Of a DNA stretch of 64,000 nucleotides, positions 1-49,724 are shown piece by piece. The DNA lies in contig DAOOOW010000001.1 in NCBI GenBank assembly GCA_035387885.1, forward strand, positions 43,392-107,391. Reading direction: 5' to 3'. Source of the stretch: a bacterium (GTDB lineage Bacteria > Patescibacteriota > Patescibacteriia > UBA2196). Positions within the stretch are counted from its first letter, which is position 1; each line of letters begins with the position of its first letter. The position numbers and the translations under genes were made by a program. A model generated the notes under the pieces. It saw nothing but the letters and a program-made list of their open reading frames with translations. It was not told where the DNA came from and did not search any database.

Positions 1-380
1 CGCTTTTTACATTTTCATTAAAGTAATTTGAATCTTTATTCGGATTCATTCGAAAAAAATTCGTAATAATTCGGAATTTATAATAAAAGATTTTTAAAAG
101 GATATTAGATTTAGTCATATTAGTACGGTCTAGGCTCAATCCCTTACGGGACTTACACCGGACCGCCTATCAACCTCATAGTCTCTGAAGTGACTATAAA
201 TCCTAATCTTGGAGACGGCTTCACGCTTATATGCTTTCAGCGTTTATCCAACCCGAACTTGACTACCCGGCGCTGCCACTGGCGTGACAACCGGCTGATC
301 AGAGGTTCGTCCTTCCCGGTCCTCTCGTACTAGGGAATGAGCTCCTCAAGATTTAACGCTCACAGTAGATAGGAGACCAA

Positions 381-1137
381 CAACTTTGTTACTATTTCTT
401 TTTGAGAAACGGACAAATATTTCTATTTATCTCTCTAATTCGCATTAGAGTTCGGACTATATCTTCCGCGCCTCCTCGGCGGGTCTAGCGTATAGTCTCT
501 GAGGATTTTAAAGATATAAATCTTGTTTTTTCGTTTTACGATACTTACCATTAACATTCATTTTATAAGCCAAATTAATAATTTTTTTAATTCCTGCTCT
601 ATTTGAATGAGCCCCACTTTGCATTAAAAAAACTATTTGCTTAAAAATTGTAAATGACTTTTGTTTGTCAGAAATAAAATTATATTTTTCAAAAAAAGGT
701 ATAATTTTATCAATTAAATCATCTCTATTTCTAACAACAAAAACATATGTATCGTCTTTCTTATTTTTAACATGGTTTTGTTTTAAATATCCGCAATCAA
801 AATATTTCTTTATAGTTTCCAAAATTTCTAATCGTAAATAACTTTGATTAATATGAAATTCTGGAATTACTTTTATTCCCTGTTTCATTTGCGGATCCTT
901 ATAGAAAGCGACATGAAAAGTTCCTTCACCTTCAGTAAAACCAACAATATACCATGGATTTATATGCTTTAATCTTTCCTGCTGATTGTCTGCGCTCAAC
1001 ACATTGTCACTATGTTTTATATTTTTCATCTATTTATTATAACATAGTAGTGTGAGATACTTCAACTCCTGTTCCTAAAAGGAGTTGGCCAGATTTTCCA
1101 GCATTTAGCTAGATTTATAGACAGCATGGATACTCCT
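381..1137 (-). mobile_element. Group I intron interrupting 23S rRNA, encoding a LAGLIDADG homing endonuclease
   Basis: 23S collinearity breaks after ...GAGACAGT (1138) and resumes at TTGGTCTCC (380). The minus-strand base before the 3' exon is G, consistent with the terminal guanosine of group I introns. The insertion point is near the E. coli 2593 region. Confidence 0.7.
508..1029 (-). CDS. LAGLIDADG homing endonuclease (intron-encoded, single-motif)
   Basis: Contains a LAGLIDADG-type motif (WYIVGFTEGEGTF). The ORF lies wholly inside the 23S intron. Confidence 0.85.
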   Translation of the reverse strand: MKNIKHSDNVLSADNQQERLKHINPWYIVGFTEGEGTFHVAFYKDPQMKQGIKVIPEFHINQSYLRLEILETIKKYFDCGYLKQNHVKNKKDDTYVFVVRNRDDLIDKIIPFFEKYNFISDKQKSFTIFKQIVFLMQSGAHSNRAGIKKIINLAYKMNVNGKYRKTKKQDLYL

Positions 1138-1171
1138 ACTGTCTCACGACGTTTTGAACCCAGCTCGCGTA

Positions 1172-1205
<34 letters not shown>

Positions 1206-1212
1206 GCTTCTA

Positions 1213-1248
<36 letters not shown>

Positions 1249-1475
1249 GAACTCCGCCGTCGCTATGGACGCTTGGGCGGAACTAGCCTGTTATCCCCGG
1301 AGTAGCTTTTATTCAATGATCTTTCAGCCACCTATATGGCATGATCGGTTCACTAACTTATGCTTTCGCAACTGCTCGTCTTGTTGGACTTGCAGTAAAG
1401 CAGGCTTAAGGGTTTGCCCTATCAATCCCGTTTCCATCGGGATCTAGCCTACCTTTGTAAATGCCTCCGTTACTT

Positions 1476-1507
<32 letters not shown>

Positions 1508-2889
1508 ACCAGATAATGTCCCCCTATAGGGGTTAGACTTACTAAATAACAAGGGTGGTATCTCACTATTGTCCCGATTGCTCGGGGCTCCCACCTATGC
1601 TGAACATGTTAATCAATAAATCAATATCAAGTTGTAGTAAAGCTTCACGGGGTCTTTTCGTCTAACTGTGAGAAGCCAGCATCTTTACTGGCATTGCAAT
1701 TTCACCGAGTCCCTTTTTAAGACAGTTTTCAGACCGTTATGCCATTCGTGCAGGACGGAACTTACCCGTCAAGGAATTTCGCTACCTTAGGACGATTATA
1801 GTTATCGCCGGCGTTCATCCGCGCTTCGGATCAGAGCTAGTCTCGATAAATCGATTTTCACCCCTCACGTTAACGTTCGGACACTGGCCAGGCATCAGCC
1901 CCTATACGTAGTCTTGCGACTTAGCAGGGACCTGTGTTTTTGGTAAACAGTCGCCTGAAACACGTTGGTTGCACCCCACATTGCTGTGGGGAGAGCTTAT
2001 CCCGAAGTTACGCTCGTTTTTTTGCCGAGTTCCTTAAAAAAGGGTTCTCTCGTTCACCTTAGTATACTCAACCCGCCTACCTGTGTCGGTTTACGGTACG
2101 GTTACTTTAATTCATGACTCTTGGTTTTTCTTGGCATTCAATCACATGAATTCGATCCAGCCGGAGCTTTCACTTCTACCAGCCGCGCCTCGTTAGACTC
2201 GGGCGGAAATCTCAAATTCCAAATCCTAAATTCCAAATAAATATCAAATTTAAAAAATCAAATTATAAATTATTTTAAAATTTAAAAATTTAATCATTAA
2301 AAATTATTTGGAAATTGAAAATTGAAAATTGGAAATTCCGTGCCGAATGCAATGAGGCACGGCCGGAACGTCATAGCCATAGGACGCTCATTCACTTGAA
2401 TACGTCGCCAAAAAGATAAAATTAAAGTAGGACAGGAATATTAACCTGTTCTTCCATCTTGTGTGACCCTTGGGCCATACAATTAGGATCGCCTAACCCT
2501 GGGATGACAGTCATTGCCCAGGAAACCTGAGGCTTTCGGTGGGCAGGATTCTCACCTGCCTTTTTGTTACTCATGCCAACATTCTTACTTCTGCTTCCTC
2601 CACACTCCCTCGCGGGATATGCTTCGCAGGTTAACAGAATACTCCTCTACCACATCACTGCTACGCAGTGGAAATCCGAAATCACAAATTCTAAATCCGA
2701 AACAATATCTAAATTCAAAAAAATAAAATATTAAAATTTTAAATTTAAATTTTTTAAATTTGTTTCGAATTTCGATATTCGAATTTCGTGCTTCCATTGC
2801 GAAGCAATGACATCCTCATCTTCGGTATTATATTTAGCCCCGAACATTTTTGGCGCATCTTCTCTTGACCAGTGAGCTATTACGCTATC

Positions 2890-2921
<32 letters not shown>

Positions 2922-3505
2922 TGGTTGTATGAGAAAAAACACCACCTTTAACACTTAATATAAATTTAGGGACCTTAGATAGAGATCTGGGCTGTTTCCC
3001 TTTTGACAATGAAGCTTAGCCCCCACTGTCTGACTACTGGAAATTTTAACCGGTATTCGGAGTTTGGTTGGGGAGGATATCTTGCGACTCCAGCCCCATC
3101 CAGTGCTCTACCCCCGGTTAAATATTAACCAGCGCTAGCCCTGAAGCTATTTCGAGGAGAACCAGCTATTACCAGGTTCGATTGGAATTTCACCCCTAAC
3201 CACAGCTCATCCCCGCGTGTTGTACGGCGCGTGAGTTCGGACCTCCTCCCACATTTCTGAGGGACTCATCCTGGCCATGGCTAGATCACCTGGTTTCGGG
3301 TCATACACATGCTGCCTTAAACGCCCATTTAAGACTTGGTTTCCCTATGCCTTAATCCGATTAACGGACTTAGACAAGCAACATAAGTATACTCGTTGGC
3401 TCATTCTTCAATAGGCACACCATTGTCCCGATTACTCGAGACTTTGATTCTTTGAAAACGTATGGTTTCAGAAACTATTTCATCCCCCTCACCGGGGTGC
3501 TTTTA

Positions 3506-3536
<31 letters not shown>

Positions 3537-4710
3537 ATCTTCGAAAGTATTTAGCCTTGGGGCATAGTCGCCCCTGCTTCAAACAGGATTTCACGTGTCC
3601 TGCCCTACTTAAGGTTCGTCATAATGAGATCTTTTCTTTTTGTATACTGGACTATCACCATCTGTGGTATTAGCTTTCCAGCTAATTTCTACTAAGAAAA
3701 AATTTTGTAACTCATTTTTTGTGTTATAAGCCACAAAAACTGACGCCTTGCAACACCTTAAACAGCAACGGCTCATACCTTTAAATACCGCTGCTCCGCA
3801 TCGGCATGCTAATTAATACAAATTATTTACGAATTATACAAATATAAATATTCGTAATAATTCGCAATTTTAATTCGCAAAATTCGCAGTCCAATGCGAA
3901 GCATTGGTAAAACACTGTTTAGGTTTAGGCTTTTCCCGGTTCGTTCGCCACTACTACGGGAATCATTATTATTTTATTTTCCTCCGCTTACTGAGATGTT
4001 TCACTTCAGCGGGTAAGCATCCCTCACTAACTTTTTGCTCCTTTAAAATTTAATCTTAAACATTTTTTGTTCATAAATATTTTATTTTTTATTTACAAAC
4101 ATTTTTATAAAAAAGATAAAATAATAAGCAGAAAGTTAGTGAGGGATAACGCAGGTTTACTACGTTGAGTTTCCTCATTCGGAAATCTCCGGATCAAAGT
4201 TTGCTTGGGAACTCCCCGGAGCTTATCGCACCCTGCCACGTCCTTCATCGCCTTTCGAAGTCTAGGCATCCACCATACGCCATAGTTCTAATATCCTTTT
4301 AAAAATCTTTTATTTTAAAATTTGAAACGTATTTATTACGTGCCTGCCCCGCATTTGCGGGGTAAAAAGATCACGCTTGTCCCGCGACTGCGGGATAAAT
4401 TCGCTTCGTTTTTACTCGATGTACATCCAGCACTAACTTTTTGCCAGTTTAAATATTTATTCTTAAAAACATTATTTAAAAAAATAATTTCTATTTTCCA
4501 TTAAACAAGGTCAATTAAAAAATAAATAAGCAAAAAGTTAGTGCTGGATAAATTGCTTTTACTTTATATATTGATTTCTCCTTTAATAAATTTTTAAAGT
4601 CCTATCCTTATCAACTAATTTCCATCTATTATATATAAACAAAAATTAACTGATAAATTTTTTCAAAATATTCGCATTTAATTCGCAATTTCAATTCGCA
4701 CAATTCGCAT

Positions 4711-6418: not shown

Positions 6419-6534
6419 ATTTATAATTATTTAAATATTCGCCTGCCTGCCGGCGAGGCAGGTAATAATTCGGGTAATTATTTTATTCGGATTAATTCGT
6501 AGGTAATATAGATTGACTATAATTTATCATAAGT

Positions 6535-10510: not shown

Positions 10511-11923
10511 ATGAAATCCAAACTTCTCATTTTATTTTTTCTTTTAACCATTACTTTAAGCACTGGTTTTGGTTGCAAGGGTGGTGACAAGGTCGCTCAA
10601 AAAGCTATTCTTGACCCAGTGGAAATAAATTTCTGGGGAGTTTTTGATTCTTCAGATAATTTTGAAACAATAATTGCTGCTTATCAATTAACGCATCCCA
10701 ATGTAACTATCAAATACAAAAAGATGCGTTATGAAGATTATGAACAACAAATGTTAGAAAGTTGGGCCAATGGCACTGGTCCAGATATTTTTGCTATTAA
10801 TAATACCTGGGTTGGAAAATATCAAAACAAAATTCTGCCTTTGCCAGCAACTGTAAAAATTCCAGTCATCGAAACAACCTCTGGATTTTTGAAAAAAGAA
10901 ACTAAGGCTGTGATCAAAGAATACAATACTTTAAACATCAATCAATTAAAAAATATTTTTCCAGATGTTGTCTATAAAGATGTCACTCGTCAAGAACAGA
11001 TCTATGCTCTGCCTTTATCCATTGATACTTTGGCGCTTTATTATAATAAAGATCTTTTTAATGCCGCCGGTATTGTGCAAGCCCCAACCACTTGGCAAGA
11101 ATTTTCCGAAGATGTAACTAAATTAATTAGACTTAATGCCAAAGGCGAATTTGAGCGCTCGGCAGCTGCCATTGGTGGAGCAAATAATATCAATCGTTCT
11201 AATGATATTTTAAGTTTACTCATGATGCAAAATGGCGCCACTATGGTTGATGGTAAAGACAAAATTGCTTTTGCTAAAAATCTAAATTCTGATAGTGATG
11301 TCAGACCAGGCGAACAAGCTTTGCAATTTTATGCCAGTTTTGCTCAACCATCCAAAGATGTTTATACTTGGAATAATACTTTACCAGAATCATTAGATAT
11401 GTTTTCATCTGGTAAATTGGCCATGTTTTTTGGCTATAATTATCAATTGCCTTTAATTAAAGCTCAAGCGCCAAGAATTAATTTTGCCCTAGCCAATATG
11501 CCTCATCTAAAAAATGACACTACTGATGCTTTTGGTTTGCCCATAAATTTTGCCAATTATTGGCTCTACACTGTTTTTAAAAAATCTGCTCATACTGATG
11601 AAGCTTGGGATTTTCTAGTTTTTTTAACCACTAAACAATACCAAGATGCCAATGGTAAACCTAGATACTATGCTGAAGACTATTTAGATACGGCAGCCAA
11701 TCCACCAGCCTTAAAAAGTTTAATCCAAAATTATCAAAATAAATATCCAGAATTAGCACCTTTTGCCAGTCAAATTTTAACTGCCGATTCTTGGTATCGG
11801 GGTAAAAATCCAGATGAAGCTAATAAAATTTTAAAACAATTAATTAATACGGCCGTGCTTGGCAATGAAGAACTTTATCGCGCAATTTCTGCTGCTGCTT
11901 CGGCTATTCAGCAATCATATTAA
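10511..11923 (+). CDS. Extracellular solute-binding protein (ABC transporter, family 1 SBP), lipoprotein
   Basis: Signal peptide plus lipobox-like TGFGC. Length and motifs (GPDIF..NN.W) fit sugar-type SBPs. Confidence 0.75.
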   Translation: MKSKLLILFFLLTITLSTGFGCKGGDKVAQKAILDPVEINFWGVFDSSDNFETIIAAYQLTHPNVTIKYKKMRYEDYEQQMLESWANGTGPDIFAINNTWVGKYQNKILPLPATVKIPVIETTSGFLKKETKAVIKEYNTLNINQLKNIFPDVVYKDVTRQEQIYALPLSIDTLALYYNKDLFNAAGIVQAPTTWQEFSEDVTKLIRLNAKGEFERSAAAIGGANNINRSNDILSLLMMQNGATMVDGKDKIAFAKNLNSDSDVRPGEQALQFYASFAQPSKDVYTWNNTLPESLDMFSSGKLAMFFGYNYQLPLIKAQAPRINFALANMPHLKNDTTDAFGLPINFANYWLYTVFKKSAHTDEAWDFLVFLTTKQYQDANGKPRYYAEDYLDTAANPPALKSLIQNYQNKYPELAPFASQILTADSWYRGKNPDEANKILKQLINTAVLGNEELYRAISAAASAIQQSY

Positions 11924-12507: not shown

Positions 12508-12760
12508 TTTTTTTTAGTTTATCCCTTTTTAGTTTATCCCGAGCGAATTTACCTTCAGGCAAATGCGCTGAGGGATCTCATTTCTATTCTTGTGTTTTTA
12601 TGTTTTAATGTTTTCATGTTATAATAATTGTGGATAATTATTAGCACCATTCGCAATTTAAAATATTCGTATTAATTCGCAATTTCAATTCGCACAATTC
12701 GCATTAAATAAAAAAGGTCGACTATATAAATTTTTTATTAATTATTTTCTATAAAAAACT

Positions 12761-13126
12761 ATGAACAAAAAAACCTTACAAAAGATTTTCTTTTCCTTGG
12801 CTTTAATTGTTTTAATTGCCCCTATCATGGTGGCTGCCGACGATTTTGGCATAGACAAATTAGATCCTCTTCATTTACCTAATCAAACAGCAGATCCAGA
12901 ATCAATCATCGGCAATGTGATTAACCTAATTCTAGGTTTTTTAGCTTTAATTGCTGTAATTATTATTTTAATAGCTGGTTTTGAATGGATGACTGCTGGT
13001 GGCAATGATAAAAGAGTAGAAACTGCTCAAAAAAGATTAAAATATGGTTTAATTGGTTTAATCATTATTTTCTTAGCCTACGGCATTGTTACCTTTGTTT
13101 TATCAACTCTTACCGATATTGTCTAA
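12761..13126 (+). CDS. Pilin-like secreted two-TM protein (VirB2/TrbC-like), minimal paralog
   Basis: Signal peptide, then LIAGFEWMTAGGNDKRVETAQKRLKYGLIGLIIIFLAYGIV core. Confidence 0.55.
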   Translation: MNKKTLQKIFFSLALIVLIAPIMVAADDFGIDKLDPLHLPNQTADPESIIGNVINLILGFLALIAVIIILIAGFEWMTAGGNDKRVETAQKRLKYGLIGLIIIFLAYGIVTFVLSTLTDIV

Positions 13127-13782
13127 TGAAACATTTAAATTTTAAAAATTTATTCAGCCTTAAAAGGCATCTAAATTTAATGGTTATTGCAATAACTATT
13201 GTTTTTTTATTTTCGTTTGTCTCCCCCGCATTTTGCGGGGGAGCGCAAGCAGCAGACACCGGACTGAAAGAAACAGCCGAAAAGGCTGGTTTACCAATTA
13301 CTGGCGATTTAACTGCTATTATTGGACAAATAATTTACACTATTCTGGGTTTCTTGGGTGTAGCTTTTGTAATTTTAGTTTTATATGGTGGGGCTAAACG
13401 CATGTTTGCCAAAGGAGATAGTAAACAAATCACAGATTCCAATGGCATTATCACTTCTGCTGTGGTGGGTGTGGCTATAATTTTATTATCTTATATTATT
13501 ACTGCTTTTGTTATCAGCCAAGTAAAAAGTAATATTGGAGCTGGAAGTGATACTACTTATCCAGTAAGTGGAGAGCCACGAGGCGCAGAATTACCAAGTT
13601 CTGGGTGTACACAGGACTCTGATTGTTCATGTAGTACAAGATTGCAACTGCCCAAATGTATTATAAGTTCTGGGATGTGTGATGTGTGTCAAAGTGTTCA
13701 ATGTATAGATGCTAGTGATTGTACTGGCGAAAGTCCAATAGGTTGGACTTGTGTAAATCATACATGCACGCAAGGTAACTAG
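13126..13782 (+). CDS. Pilin-like two-TM protein (VirB2/TrbC-like) with a Cys-rich C-terminal domain
   Basis: Core LYGGAKRMFAKGDSKQITDSNGIITSAVVGVAIILLSYII. C-terminal 60 aa with 12 Cys. Carries an in-frame CCCCCGCATTTTGCGGGGG palindrome. Confidence 0.55.
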   Translation: MKHLNFKNLFSLKRHLNLMVIAITIVFLFSFVSPAFCGGAQAADTGLKETAEKAGLPITGDLTAIIGQIIYTILGFLGVAFVILVLYGGAKRMFAKGDSKQITDSNGIITSAVVGVAIILLSYIITAFVISQVKSNIGAGSDTTYPVSGEPRGAELPSSGCTQDSDCSCSTRLQLPKCIISSGMCDVCQSVQCIDASDCTGESPIGWTCVNHTCTQGN

Positions 13783-13788
13783 TTTAAT

Positions 13789-14193
13789 ATGCTTTATTCT
13801 CTTTCTAAAAAACCATTGCTAATTATCTTATTTATTGCTTTGTTTTTTTATTGTTTTATTCCTGTGCCCTCACAGGCTTCTATTTTTGATGCTATCACCA
13901 CTAATTTAGGCATTTTTAATCAAGGCGCTGAATTGCCAACTAGCAATGTTGGCCTTGAAGGCATTGTGATTAATATTATTAATACCGCTCTTTCATTTTT
14001 GGGTTTAATATTTGTTTGTCTGGTGCTCTATGCTGGTTTTCTCTATATGACAGCCGCTGGTGAAACAAAAAAAGTAGAAAAAGCTAATAATATTTTAAGA
14101 GATTCGGTTATTGGTTTAGCTATTATTTTTGCTTCCTACGTTCTGGTCAATTATGTAATTACCGAAGTTATTAAACTTATTAAAACTGCTTAA
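13789..14193 (+). CDS. Pilin-like secreted two-TM protein (VirB2/TrbC-like)
   Basis: Signal peptide, then LYAGFLYMTAAGETKKVEKANNILRDSVIGLAIIFASYVLV core. Confidence 0.55.
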   Translation: MLYSLSKKPLLIILFIALFFYCFIPVPSQASIFDAITTNLGIFNQGAELPTSNVGLEGIVINIINTALSFLGLIFVCLVLYAGFLYMTAAGETKKVEKANNILRDSVIGLAIIFASYVLVNYVITEVIKLIKTA

Positions 14194-21614: not shown

Positions 21615-22343
21615 ATGTCAGAAACAAAAAATGAATCCAAAAAATTTATCACTGATTCCCCTAAAACAAATTTTTTTATTGGTCTTGTTTTGGGTGTTGC
21701 TATCATCTCCACAATCGGTTTTGTAGGACTTGGTATAACCAAAAAAGATTCTACTAAAAACACTGCCACTAATTCTGAGAACTCTGGGCAACAAGTAGCT
21801 GGTGAACAGGCTGAAGCGAAAGAACCTGTTGTTGATTTAAAAATTACTGACAGCGACCATGTCTGGGGTGATAAAAATGCTCCAGTAAAAATATTCGAAT
21901 TTTCAGATTTTCAATGCCCTTACTGTGCCAAACATCATGAAACACTAAAAAAAATAGTTGAAGATTATGATGGTCAGGTGGCTTGGGTTTTTAAACAATT
22001 TCCTATTCAATCACATCCTTTGGGTATGCCAGGAGCTTTGGCTTCTGAATGTGCCAATGAGCAAGGAAAATTTTGGGAAATGTCTGATATGATTTTTTCT
22101 AATCAAAGCACTTTAACTGCCGAAAGTTTTGCCAGTTTTGCTAAAGACTTAGGTTTAGACACAGAAAAATTTAATACTTGTGTTAAAGACGCCAAATACA
22201 CCGAAAGAATTACTGCTGATTATAATTTAGGTATTGATTCTGGAGTGCAAGGCACACCATCTAACTTCATCAACAACAAATTAGTTCCTGGCGCTTTGCC
22301 ATACGAAAATATAAAAAGCGTGATTGATGACTTGTTAAAATAA
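21615..22343 (+). CDS. DsbA-family thiol:disulfide oxidoreductase with an N-terminal TM anchor
   Basis: CPYC active site. DsbA-like length and motifs. Confidence 0.75.
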   Translation: MSETKNESKKFITDSPKTNFFIGLVLGVAIISTIGFVGLGITKKDSTKNTATNSENSGQQVAGEQAEAKEPVVDLKITDSDHVWGDKNAPVKIFEFSDFQCPYCAKHHETLKKIVEDYDGQVAWVFKQFPIQSHPLGMPGALASECANEQGKFWEMSDMIFSNQSTLTAESFASFAKDLGLDTEKFNTCVKDAKYTERITADYNLGIDSGVQGTPSNFINNKLVPGALPYENIKSVIDDLLK

Positions 22344-22429
22344 TCACTTGCTAATTAGAGCGAATTAATTGCTAATTTTACGAATATTTTAAAAGACCGT
22401 TATAAACGGTCTTTTAAAATTTTAAATTA

Positions 22430-46988: not shown

Positions 46989-48359
46989 ATGAATAATGAG
47001 CAACTTTGGCAAGCTATTTTAGGAGAACTAGAAGTTTCTATTTCTAAAGCTAACTTTACTACTTGGTTTAAAAATACTTTTGTTTTAGAACAAGAAGATA
47101 ATAAGCTTATTGTAGCCGTACCCAACACATTTACCAAAACTTGGCTAGAAAATAAATACAATAAAGCTATTATTTCGGCTCTTAAAAAAATAACCCAAAA
47201 CAAACTCAATGAAATATATTATAAAGTTTCTTTGGTGCCTGAAAAAACCACTAATTCCGTGCATAATTTAAAAAATATTATTAAAAATGATTTAGAATTA
47301 AAAAATACCGAAAACCTTAAAACCGATAATCATGGATTAAATCCTAAATATGTGTTTGAAACTTTTATTGTAGGTAAAAGCAACGAACTAGCCTTTGCAG
47401 CTGCTCAAGCAGTGGCTAAAAACCCAGGCAAATCCTATAATCCACTCTACATTTATGGCGGTGTGGGTTTAGGTAAAACTCATTTATTACAAGCTATTGG
47501 TCATGAAATAGTTAAAAAAAATCCGCAAGCCAAACTTTTATATGCAACCAGTGAATATTTTACCAATCAATTCGTTTTTGCTATTCGTTCTAATAAAACC
47601 AAGGAATTTCAAAACAAATTTAGAGATATTGATGTTTTAATTATTGATGATATTCAATTTATTTCCGGCAAAGAACAAACTCAGGAACAATTATTTCATA
47701 CTTTTAACGATTTACATCAAAATAATAAACAAATAATTTTTTCCTCTGATAGAATTCCTAAGGCTATTGCTGGTTTAGAATCAAGATTAGAATCACGTTT
47801 TGAATGGGGTATGATTGTCGATATTGCTGAACCAGACACAGAAACTAAAATTGCTATTATTGAGGCTAAATTAATTGAAAAAGGCTTTTCTTTAGATAAA
47901 AACATTGTTTTATTTTTGGCTACCAATTCCGGTCGCAATGTTAGAGAAATAGAAGGTATTATTAATCGTATTATAGCCCATTGTGATTTAATTAGTCATG
48001 ACAAAGAAGTCACTCTGGAAGACGTTAAAAATATTTTACAGACCATTAATCAACATTTACCTCAAAGTGCTATTACAATCAAAAAAATTATTAAAATTGT
48101 AGCAGAATTTTATGATGTATCATTGGATGATATTCTTAGTGAATCTAGAAAAAAAGAATTAGTTGAACCAAGACAAATTACCATGTATTTAATTAGAGAA
48201 GAAATTGGTTCATCATTTCCCAATATTGGTCAAGAACTTGGCGGTAGAGACCACACCACTGCCATGCACGCTTATGAAAAAGTTAAAAAGTTAGTTTTAG
48301 AAAATGATAAAATTAAACAGGATATTTTTTTACTCAAACAAAAACTTTATAATGATTAA
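46989..48359 (+). CDS. dnaA: Chromosomal replication initiator DnaA
   Basis: AAA+ Walker A GGVGLGKTHL. C-terminal DNA-binding domain (MYLIREE...LGGRDHTT). Confidence 0.95.
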   Translation: MNNEQLWQAILGELEVSISKANFTTWFKNTFVLEQEDNKLIVAVPNTFTKTWLENKYNKAIISALKKITQNKLNEIYYKVSLVPEKTTNSVHNLKNIIKNDLELKNTENLKTDNHGLNPKYVFETFIVGKSNELAFAAAQAVAKNPGKSYNPLYIYGGVGLGKTHLLQAIGHEIVKKNPQAKLLYATSEYFTNQFVFAIRSNKTKEFQNKFRDIDVLIIDDIQFISGKEQTQEQLFHTFNDLHQNNKQIIFSSDRIPKAIAGLESRLESRFEWGMIVDIAEPDTETKIAIIEAKLIEKGFSLDKNIVLFLATNSGRNVREIEGIINRIIAHCDLISHDKEVTLEDVKNILQTINQHLPQSAITIKKIIKIVAEFYDVSLDDILSESRKKELVEPRQITMYLIREEIGSSFPNIGQELGGRDHTTAMHAYEKVKKLVLENDKIKQDIFLLKQKLYND

Positions 48360-48611: not shown

Positions 48612-49724
48612 ATGAAATTTACTTGTGTAAAAGAAAATTTAATTAAAGGCATCAATACTGTGGCTAGGATTTCTGGAAAAAATATTAGTTTGCCAATTTT
48701 AAATAATATTTTAATTGCTACTGCGGATGATGGAGTGGAATTTGTGGGTACTAACTTAGAAATTGGCATTAAAAATAAAATTAGAGCCAAAATTGAAGAC
48801 AAAGGCAAAATAACTGTCCCAGCCAAAACATTGGCTAGTTTTGTAAATTTTTTACCAGATGAAAAAGTAAGCTTTGAGTTAATAAAAAATAGCAACGAAA
48901 TACAAATAAAATCTGGTACTTGGGAAACAAAAATTAAAACTCAATCAGCAGAAGATTATCCATTAATTCCGGAAGTAGAAAGAAAAAATGGTTTTAAAAT
49001 TAAAGCTAAAAAATTTAAAGAAGCACTAGAACAAGTGATTTTTGCAGCGCTTTCCAATGAGGCCAGGCCAGAATTATCTGGTGGGTATATTTCATTTAAT
49101 GAAAAACAACTTACAATTGTGGCTACAGATAGTTATCGTTTAGCTGAAAAACATATAGAGTTAAGTGAAAGCATTAAAAAAGCTGGTAGTTTTATTGTGC
49201 CTATAAAAACTTTACAGGAAATTGAAAAAATAATTAGTGAAAATGATAATAACGAAGATTTGGAAATTTATTTTGAAGAAAATCAAATTATATTTTTAAT
49301 TGCTGGGGTGGAAATTAATTCCAGACTAATTAATGGACAGTATCCAGATTATAAACAAATAATTCCTACTAAAAGCAATACTCAAATTATAATTAATAAA
49401 AATGAAATTTTAAATGCAGTTAAAGCAGCTAGTGTTTTTACCAAAATTGGCATCAATGATGTTATGTTTGAATTTAAAAAACCGGCCAGTGTAATAATTA
49501 AAGCTGTTAATAATCAATTGGGTGAAAATCAAGCTGTTATTAATGGGGAGATTAATGGTGATGATAATAATATTACTTTTAATTATCATTATATTTTGGA
49601 AGGCCTAGCTAATTTAAAAGAAGAAAAATTTGTTTTAGAAATTTCTAATGCTAACAATCCTGCAATTCTTAAACCTTTAGAAAAAAAAGATTATTTGTAT
49701 TTAATAATGCCCATTCGTCAATAA
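48612..49724 (+). CDS. dnaN: DNA polymerase III beta sliding clamp
   Basis: Three-domain beta clamp, 370 aa. N-terminal MKF.C.K..L. Confidence 0.9.
   Translation: MKFTCVKENLIKGINTVARISGKNISLPILNNILIATADDGVEFVGTNLEIGIKNKIRAKIEDKGKITVPAKTLASFVNFLPDEKVSFELIKNSNEIQIKSGTWETKIKTQSAEDYPLIPEVERKNGFKIKAKKFKEALEQVIFAALSNEARPELSGGYISFNEKQLTIVATDSYRLAEKHIELSESIKKAGSFIVPIKTLQEIEKIISENDNNEDLEIYFEENQIIFLIAGVEINSRLINGQYPDYKQIIPTKSNTQIIINKNEILNAVKAASVFTKIGINDVMFEFKKPASVIIKAVNNQLGENQAVINGEINGDDNNITFNYHYILEGLANLKEEKFVLEISNANNPAILKPLEKKDYLYLIMPIRQ

Follow-up and report, generated by a model that had tools for sequence, protein, structure and literature searches.

The 64-kb stretch of DNA analysed here, which we call the window, comes from a Patescibacterium (source contig JGI 3300025855 Ga0209717_1000183). 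Its S18 protein has its nearest counterparts among those labelled Patescibacteria, Kuenenbacteria and Falkowbacteria. A 23S rRNA gene lies on its minus strand, and short arrays of the heptad ATTCG(C/T)A are found within that gene, next to it and at several other non-coding positions (Table 1). Reading along the minus strand towards the 23S gene, rpsR is followed by a TTGACA-17-TATAAT promoter (4876–4848), a terminator (4743–4720), one of the arrays (module B) and a putative 23S promoter, P2 (TTATCA-17-TATAAT, 4656–4628), with module B lying between the terminator and the −35 element of P2. Another array, module C, is 15 nt downstream of TGTTATAAT (12617–12625) and 57 nt upstream of the ATG at 12761, the start of the first TrbC-type pilin gene. 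A variant, which we call type 2, sits between the stop codon of an LTD-domain gene and the start of rpsF, both genes being on the minus strand, and a degenerate array lies between convergent genes, immediately ahead of a bidirectional terminator hairpin. The 23S gene reaches position 113 by way of a group I intron, which places a further, looser array just beyond its 3ʹ end. The window also encodes RNase III. As described below, the ATTCGCA module is a member of an apparently undescribed family of short intergenic repeats found across the ultra-small Patescibacteria, or Candidate Phyla Radiation (CPR).

Of the 14 ATTCGCA heptads in the window, 11 fall into three tight clusters on the plus strand; solo heptads that are not part of arrays occur at background frequency. 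There are five arrays with at least three ATTCG cores spaced 7–17 nt apart, where 300 block shuffles gave 0.01 on average. If up to one mismatch is allowed there are six, the extra one being degenerate, against 0.08 by chance. With counts so far above those of the shuffles, the repeated ATTCGCA module is confirmed as real. A first-pass annotation, made from the sequence alone, had described three near-identical fourfold modules, with spacings of about 10, 13 and 9. The heptad coordinates agree with that description, all three modules being on the plus strand, and the spacings were measured as 10, 13 and 9 in modules A and C and as 11, 13 and 9 in module B. The same annotation had placed module A in a ~150-nt expansion of domain I of the 23S rRNA and module B between the rpsR terminator and the 23S 5ʹ end, and alignment to the large-subunit (LSU) rRNA model and the position of the terminator bear this out. 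The looser arrays that it had reported near 30–85, 6440–6520 and 22340–22390 are also real, the last on the opposite strand.

Modules B and C are identical across ~31 nt, spacers included. The last four heptads of module C match module B, with start-to-start spacings of 10, 13 and 9. Module A is 94% identical to module B, and beyond the arrays there is no alignable sequence. Mean heptad spacing in the window is ~10.7 bp. Three arrays lie on the pre-23S transcript, all in the same sense.

Table 1. Heptad arrays of the window and the 23S rRNA features that host them (positions on the plus strand of the window)
Feature	Position	Strand	Details
23S rRNA gene, host of element	113..4296	-	Rfam; also holds a 104-nt hairpin insertion and a group I intron
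Expansion of domain I hairpin, 152 nt	3763..3914	-	LSU model ~274–296 (Rfam cmscan alignment)
Two-arm palindrome, 4+4 heptads	3807..3888	.	Within 23S expansion 3763–3914
Module A, right arm of 23S element	3850..3888	+	ATTCGTA at 3850, ATTCGCA at 3860, 3873 and 3882; spacing 10, 13, 9
Module B, one arm, four ATTCGCA	4670..4709	+	Heptads at 4670, 4681, 4694 and 4703; spacing 11, 13, 9
Module C, one arm, six heptads	12640..12703	+	Heptads at 12640, 12649, 12665 (ATTCGTA), 12675, 12688 and 12697
Type 2 variant module	6437..6501	+	ATTCGCC, embedded GC hairpin, ATTCGGG, ATTCGGA, ATTCGTA
Looser one-arm array	26..75	+	ATTTGAA, ATTCGGA, ATTCGAA, ATTCGTA, ATTCGGA; 38 nt beyond 23S 3ʹ end
Degenerate one-arm array	22349..22385	-	Plus strand reads TGCTAAT, AGCGAAT, TGCTAAT, TACGAAT

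The copy inside the 23S gene is not a single array. The first-pass annotation had overlooked that it is a two-arm palindrome predicted to fold into an rRNA helix. On the plus strand, it reads TGCTAAT, TACAAAT, TACGAAT and TACAAAT, a 6-nt loop, ATTCGTA and three ATTCGCA heptads; on the rRNA strand, this becomes three TGCGAAT heptads and TACGAAT, the loop, and then ATTTGTA, ATTCGTA, ATTTGTA and ATTAGCA. In the rRNA sense, the expansion is predicted to form a single long hairpin of −67.3 kcal/mol (z = −9), against −40.3 kcal/mol for the antisense strand. Differences from the consensus in the decayed arm are mostly C-to-T, and G.U pairs are preserved in the rRNA sense. Together, the sense bias of the predicted fold and the retention of G.U pairs indicate that this copy is evolving as an rRNA helix. 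The G.U signature, which is of an RNA type, was found only in copies inside rRNA.

A second organism provides an independent case. The 23S gene of a metagenome locus, L223, carries a two-arm element (1419–1565) in a domain IV hairpin, at LSU model ~1890. This insertion amounts to ~131 nt, the hairpin holding 144 nt where the loop of the LSU model has 13, and its predicted fold is again stronger in the sense direction (−86.0 versus −72.6 kcal/mol). In a third organism, at locus L185, a two-arm element (3700–3812) lies ~160 nt upstream of the 23S gene.

How widely is the element distributed? We scanned representative genomes for ATTCGCA-N1-8-ATTCGCA-N1-8-ATTCGCA; the matches listed were mostly simple tandem repeats, and about a dozen CPR loci were useful. 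Among these listed matches, irregular arrays were found in metagenome-assembled genomes (MAGs) labelled Parcubacteria, Saccharibacteria, Roizman-, Levyi-, Kuenen-, Falkow-, Torok- and Liptonbacteria, and a few irregularly spaced arrays came from other phyla. For Saccharibacteria, locus L083 has arrays ahead of secY and map. A second scan, of metagenome contigs, used a pattern built to exclude regular tandem repeats. It yielded at least 120 loci carrying a four-heptad arm, from sequences with GC contents of 0.27 to 0.66, their taxonomy being inferred from named genome matches. Around each match there are ~0.4 further elements per 10 kb, and the window has six copies in 64 kb; a density of ~0.4–0.9 per 10 kb extrapolates to tens of elements per genome.

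The arm has a fixed plan, H1-2-H2-3..5-H3-1..2-H4, in which H1 to H4 are heptads and the numbers are nucleotides between them. Among the matches listed in the second scan, H1 (ATTCGYR), which the search pattern did not force, lies exactly 2 nt upstream of H2 in most cases, the arm ends in TTAT or TCGC, and an inverted arm is found directly upstream in 52 of 124; two-arm elements point outwards in 52 cases (54 with a wider flank) and converge in 2. The two-arm consensus is ataATGCGAATcTACGAAT..aTGCGAAT.cTACGAAT-loop-ATTCGCGgcATTCGCAt.a.ATTCGCAt.ATTCGCAttat, with defined outer ends (ATAA-TGCGAAT ... ATTCGCA-TTAT) and A/T-rich flanks that extend the palindrome. One-arm copies are common. Across the wider CPR elements, heptads recur every ~8–12 bp, irregularly, with an average of ~9.5. 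The heptads are conserved; the spacers differ in sequence, and those of one arm are not complementary to those of the other. We also observed loci (L162, L217, L156 and L180) in which a four-heptad arm plus a ~20-nt tail is itself tandemly repeated, with a period of ~56 nt. Palindromes of 3+3 or 4+4 TGCGAAT/ATTCGCA heptads were seen at three loci (L015, L057 and L115) in MAGs labelled Bacteroidota, Acidobacteriota and Proteobacteria; the family may extend past the Patescibacteria, or else these contigs were mis-binned.

The family does not appear to have been described before. The window arrays have no match in Rfam at gathering thresholds, a permissive Rfam search of seven element-bearing loci gave chance-level matches only, and literature searches on the heptad itself and on CPR promoters, repeats and palindromes turned up no description of it. 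The exact module had no match in the metagenome contigs, a collection that does not include the source sample. A search of 2.9 million viral contigs gave a single, unrelated match, and hence no association with phages.

Comparison of relatives indicates that elements come and go. The first-pass annotation had suggested looking for the insert in the 23S genes of relatives, and the outcome is divided. L123, a relative whose S18 is 79% identical and whose genes follow one another in the same order (LTD gene, rpsF, ssb, rpsR, 23S), has the same 23S expansion in a shorter form, without the ~90 nt (window ~3814–3903) that hold the element; the three same-species strains, L250–L252, all keep the element, one of them with a single substitution. 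In strains L120 and L252, a hairpin-containing type 2 module takes the place of module B, between identical flanks; this type of module is otherwise found upstream of rpsF. L123 has TACGGATTACGAAT-N7-ATTCGTAATTCGTA at that site, abutting the −35 of the equivalent promoter. Heptads thus abut the P2 −35 both in the window and in L123, in differing arrangements. Module C is conserved in L120, together with an extra 57 nt bearing more heptads, and the array at 26–75 is missing from the equivalent place in L252. Filled and empty sites, as expected of a MITE (a miniature transposable element with inverted repeats), are therefore seen for the 23S element in L123, for the 26–75 array in L252 and for the 23S element of L223. 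Identical spacers, module swaps, expansions and two independent 23S insertions together indicate that elements are copied and inserted. This lends partial support to the small mobile module that the first-pass annotation had offered as one of its two explanations, as far as the ~90 nt absent from L123, the swap in L120 and L252 and the L223 insertion go; no target-site duplication could be defined, and no transposase was seen among the Pfam-annotated neighbours.

To describe the neighbourhood of the elements, we took 94 M-start open reading frames (ORFs) that begin within 70 nt of an element, using crude ORF calling with Pfam confirmation. Pfam confirmed ribosomal proteins in 16 of the 94: L13, L7/L12 and L10 (two each), and S2, L1, S7, L6, L29, S12, L31, L21, L2 and S5. 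Other neighbours include EF-G (two), RRF, SecY, ATP synthase B (two) and alpha, TsaD, PheT and various envelope genes. The genes rplJ, rplL, rplM, fusA and atpF recur beside elements in genomes whose GC contents differ widely; in two genomes that differ in this respect, rplJ and rplL each have an element ahead of them. In the window, the pilin cluster that the first-pass annotation had placed downstream of module C is indeed there, at 57 nt, but its genes are of the TrbC/VirB2 type (type IV secretion). As an observation on the cluster itself, its genes (12761–14193) are TrbC/VirB2-type pilin-like genes (PF04956, PF18895) and not type IV pilins.

Several known systems resemble these elements. 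The heptad elements are closest to REP/BIME- and MITE-like repeats, to 23S intervening sequences (IVSs) and to heptad operators, and fit none of them fully. Like REP/BIME, Correia, ERIC, RUP and BOX sequences, they are short, non-coding, imperfect palindromes that are intergenic and present in multiple near-identical copies within a genome. As with REP/BIME-type repeats, their presence varies among close strains and they are often co-transcribed with their neighbours; some REP/BIME-type repeats carry sites for host proteins or promoter-like ends, and here an inward-facing TATAAT/GCGAAT junction is found at the outer end of 51 of 178 arms. Two-arm and solo copies alike are non-coding, in keeping with imperfect, extragenic, repeated palindromes, and the two-arm elements have the terminal inverted repeats of MITEs. 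However, each arm consists of four spaced 7-nt direct repeats rather than a simple GC-rich stem, the density is ~0.4–0.9 per 10 kb where REP/BIME sequences reach hundreds of copies, and the heptad is conserved across the superphylum, whereas REP and MITE sequences are species-specific. Moreover, no RAYT (IS200/IS605-like) gene, of the kind linked to REP/BIME, is present among the Pfam-annotated neighbours of the elements.

The resemblance to 23S IVSs is in the ~90–150 nt of extra sequence in a variable 23S hairpin, sporadic among relatives and with a long stem; in both the window and L223, extra sequence in a variable helix is predicted to form an extended stem. Classical 23S IVSs sit in helices 9, 25 and 45. 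The heptad insertions differ from these in lying in hairpins of domain I (model ~280) and domain IV (model ~1890), and in consisting of sequence that belongs to an otherwise intergenic repeat family. Operators built from heptads or similar short repeats, to which small oligomeric regulators bind cooperatively, include the WATCACW sites of the omega repressor of inc18 plasmids, MraZ boxes, the 0A boxes of Spo0A and the repeats bound by ParR and ParG. In common with these, the elements have units of ~7 bp, 3–10 repeats that are both direct and inverted, locations at or near promoters, and an average period near one helical turn. In contrast, their spacers vary from 1 to 6 nt, whereas omega heptads are contiguous and MraZ boxes are fixed at 10 bp; their sequence is unrelated to any of these motifs; and copies are also found away from promoters and inside rRNA. 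Finally, we considered guide-encoding arrays of the TIGR and CRISPR kinds. TIGR arrays consist of repeat-spacer units encoding 36-nt tigRNAs beside a Tas gene (10.64898/2026.09.09.750476, PMC12045711). The elements have a period of 8–13 nt, spacers of 1–6 nt and four units per arm, and we rejected a TIGR-Tas reading because of this mismatch in geometry; none of the annotated neighbours has a Nop, Tas or Cas domain.

What, then, are the heptad elements? Their architecture, distribution and insertion polymorphisms, together with the rRNA-sense folding of the 23S copies, lead us to propose a dispersed, low-copy repeat of heptads that are bound by a putative conserved protein, with the 23S copy maintained as a helix. 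We give this proposal about an even chance. Its unit would be the heptad ATTCG(C/T)A, arranged four to an arm with short-long-short spacing, two outward-pointing arms making up a palindrome of ~80–90 bp. The heptads would be recognition sites for a putative conserved, sequence-specific DNA-binding protein, which, as a small oligomer, may occupy more or less a single helix face. That the heptad, and not the spacer, is conserved across genomes of 27–66% GC argues for sequence-specific recognition, and the lack of strand bias argues for recognition at the level of DNA rather than RNA. Judging by these patterns of conservation, the elements are probably bound by a conserved protein. The phased protein-binding array proposed in the first-pass annotation survives in part: conservation of heptad over spacer supports the binding, but strict helical phasing gives way to a short-long-short pattern of 8–13 bp.

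We further propose that elements get duplicated and converted and are occasionally inserted at new places. Many copies would come to lie at the promoters or in the leaders of highly expressed genes, where the bound protein may modulate transcription. Candidate targets in the window are the 23S rRNA promoter P2, the rpsF-ssb-rpsR operon and the pilin operon. The copy at 3807–3888 would be a two-arm element that inserted into an already variable 23S hairpin and was tolerated there because its arms pair into a helix. It may now be kept as an RNA helix, in the form of an expansion segment or of an IVS that RNase III excises.

A number of observations sit uneasily with this proposal. A selfish repeat would not usually have a 7-nt unit conserved across a superphylum. 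Beside the elements there is no recurrent candidate regulator gene, no binding protein was identified, no transposase was seen among the Pfam-annotated neighbours, and no target-site duplication could be defined. Relatives with 72–81% S18 identity have no arrays in 35 kb. Within the window, arrays are absent from other translation genes, namely rpsO, rpmF, rpmH and efp. Approximately 6% of the genes in such genomes encode ribosomal proteins. Set against this background, 16 of 94 is a moderate enrichment for ribosomal genes, and an approximate one, as it depends on crude ORFs and on the assumed ~6%. Single arms show no bias in orientation to gene starts (15 towards versus 14 away; 62 versus 60), and elements are also present in convergent intergenic regions. 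These last two observations weaken the case for a simple promoter or operator role.

Three more specific roles near gene starts were also considered. Arrays appeared to point at start codons with a preference of ~70%, but this preference vanishes for single arms, and its source is the outward-pointing two-arm architecture. The TTAT tail could have formed a functional, inward-facing −10 box; the junction is real, but it does not predict the side on which the gene lies. Lastly, TTCGCA as a −35 element with CATTAT as a −10 element, serving leaderless mRNAs, has a spacing that suits some loci but not others.

An alternative explanation is that the elements are operator arrays and nothing else, bound by a conserved global transcription factor that controls a regulon of rRNA, ribosomal-protein, translation-factor and further growth-related genes, with no real mobility, the rRNA copies being accidents of recombination. 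The heptad is conserved across CPR lineages, copy number is low (~0.4 extra elements per 10 kb), and arrays recur upstream of rplJ/rplL, rplM, fusA, atpF and 23S in divergent genomes, all of which is as expected for operators. So too are the heptads retained beside the P2 −35 in both L123 and the window, and the position of module C just downstream of an extended −10, which is typical of a repressor site. However, operators would not be expected to lack preference for orientation or side relative to gene starts, as single arms do, or to lie between convergent genes and within the 23S genes of two separate organisms. Nor do they account for spacers that are identical between copies, for whole modules swapped at one site or for the absence of arrays from most translation genes of the window. 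On balance, we consider this explanation unlikely.

A second alternative is that the element acts as RNA, either as a leader or intercistronic hairpin that stabilises or processes mRNA or pre-rRNA, for example as an RNase III site, or as a set of single-stranded protein sites similar to those of TRAP and CsrA. Two-arm elements are able to form long hairpins, many lie in ribosomal-protein operons, 3–20 nt before starts that have no obvious Shine-Dalgarno sequence, and an irregular spacing of 8–13 nt would suit single-strand recognition; the shared sense of the three arrays on the pre-23S transcript is also consistent with a function in RNA. Nonetheless, the folding energy of intergenic two-arm elements shows no sense/antisense asymmetry relative to the adjacent gene (expected direction in 13 of 24), spacers between paired heptads are neither complementary nor covarying, and one-arm copies are frequent and occur in either orientation to transcription. 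In addition, there is no matching Rfam family, and the G.U signature is confined to copies inside rRNA. Hence, we regard an RNA-level function of the element as improbable.

The first-pass annotation had also suggested an UP element or a nucleoid-associated-protein site phased with the helix, which would boost rRNA promoters. UP elements are A/T-rich tracts of ~20 bp that have no conserved G/C core and sit at about −40 to −60, directly upstream of a −35 hexamer. Module B, at roughly −38 to −80 of the putative P2, is suitably placed, and the mean spacing of ~10.7 bp in the window is close to what this would require. Composition and position already go most of the way to refuting this suggestion: at the core of the conserved unit is an invariant CG, not an A/T tract, a place immediately upstream of a −35 is seen for module B only, other copies being downstream of the −10 (module C), between convergent genes, after 3ʹ ends or within 23S, and the heptad periods of the wider CPR elements are irregular, at ~8–12 bp with an average of ~9.5. 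We therefore consider it highly improbable. Pairing between rRNA and mRNA, in which UGCGAAU arrays of the 23S expansion, or of the pre-rRNA leader and trailer, would couple messages with AUUCGCA leader arrays, such as that of the pilin operon, to ribosomes or to rRNA synthesis, is barely credible: the rRNA-sense expansion arm matches the complement of module C at 36 of 39 positions and shares its spacing, but that arm is predicted to pair with its own partner, the insert is limited to one species-level clade, and leader arrays occur in both orientations across CPR.

The window has other features of interest around its rRNA gene. The group I intron (765 nt; window 433–1150, minus strand) lies at LSU model ~2620, and its ORF (508..1029) codes for a LAGLIDADG homing endonuclease that is also present on contigs from several other samples. 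A second family of palindromic repeats, ATCCNNCACTAACTTTTTGC ... GCANAAAGTTAGTGNNGGAT flanking an A/T-rich loop, has copies at 4019–4147 and 4425–4549. One forms the 104-nt insertion that a 23S hairpin carries at model ~167, and the other is in the 23S leader, where L123 also has it; these palindromes look like IVSs or processing stems. No 16S or 5S gene adjoins the 23S gene (region 1–4300) within the window, and hence its rRNA genes appear to be unlinked, whereas L123 has a 5S gene (11509–11617) directly after its 23S.

The region between rpsR and the 23S gene has a further unit of its own. The perfect TTGACA-17-TATAAT promoter is followed by TTATCCACA (4827–4819), a 13-codon ORF (4805–4764, MYTKKLILFSLSG) and the intrinsic terminator (4743–4720). 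The promoter, the TTATCCACA box and the mini-ORF are kept in L123, where the peptide is MQKNILTLFFSSG. This unit may encode a leader peptide or attenuator, or a small RNA. Perfect TTATCCACA boxes, which are DnaA-box-like, number six in 64 kb (4819, 12629, 39879, 54021, 61008 and 61031), the last two forming a pair, and matches with up to one mismatch are also above chance. We considered the box as a part of the arrays, since it adjoins two of them, but rejected this because orientation and distance are inconsistent. The window also includes dnaA (46989–48359) and dnaN (48612–49724), and cumulative GC skew has its minimum at ~48 kb; the replication origin is likely at dnaA-dnaN, ~48 kb.

It is tempting to combine mobility and regulation. 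The heptad arrays could be the operator code of a new, Patescibacteria-wide global regulator, the sites of which have spread by duplication and have colonised even rRNA genes. This is a tentative idea, and one that we think will probably prove wrong. If true, the regulator would co-ordinate genes for rRNA, ribosomal proteins, translation factors, ATP synthase and surface appendages, and could stand in for the circuits that exert control in better-known bacteria.

Patescibacteria account for a large part of bacterial diversity, and gene regulation in this group is almost uncharted. Tools for a genetically tractable Patescibacterium are reported (PMC10633639). The presence of an element inside the 23S genes of two organisms offers one specific source for some of the rRNA insertions that have gone unexplained in the group. 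Should the element be only a selfish repeat, it would still represent a new repeat family with an unusually deep distribution. A heptad conserved from Saccharibacteria to Parcubacteria, in an arm fixed at four heptads and located next to genes for rRNA, ribosomal proteins and other highly expressed products, is a concrete handle on regulation in these bacteria: the element could be used as bait for the protein that reads it, and as an annotation marker for regulatory or leader regions in thousands of uncultured genomes.

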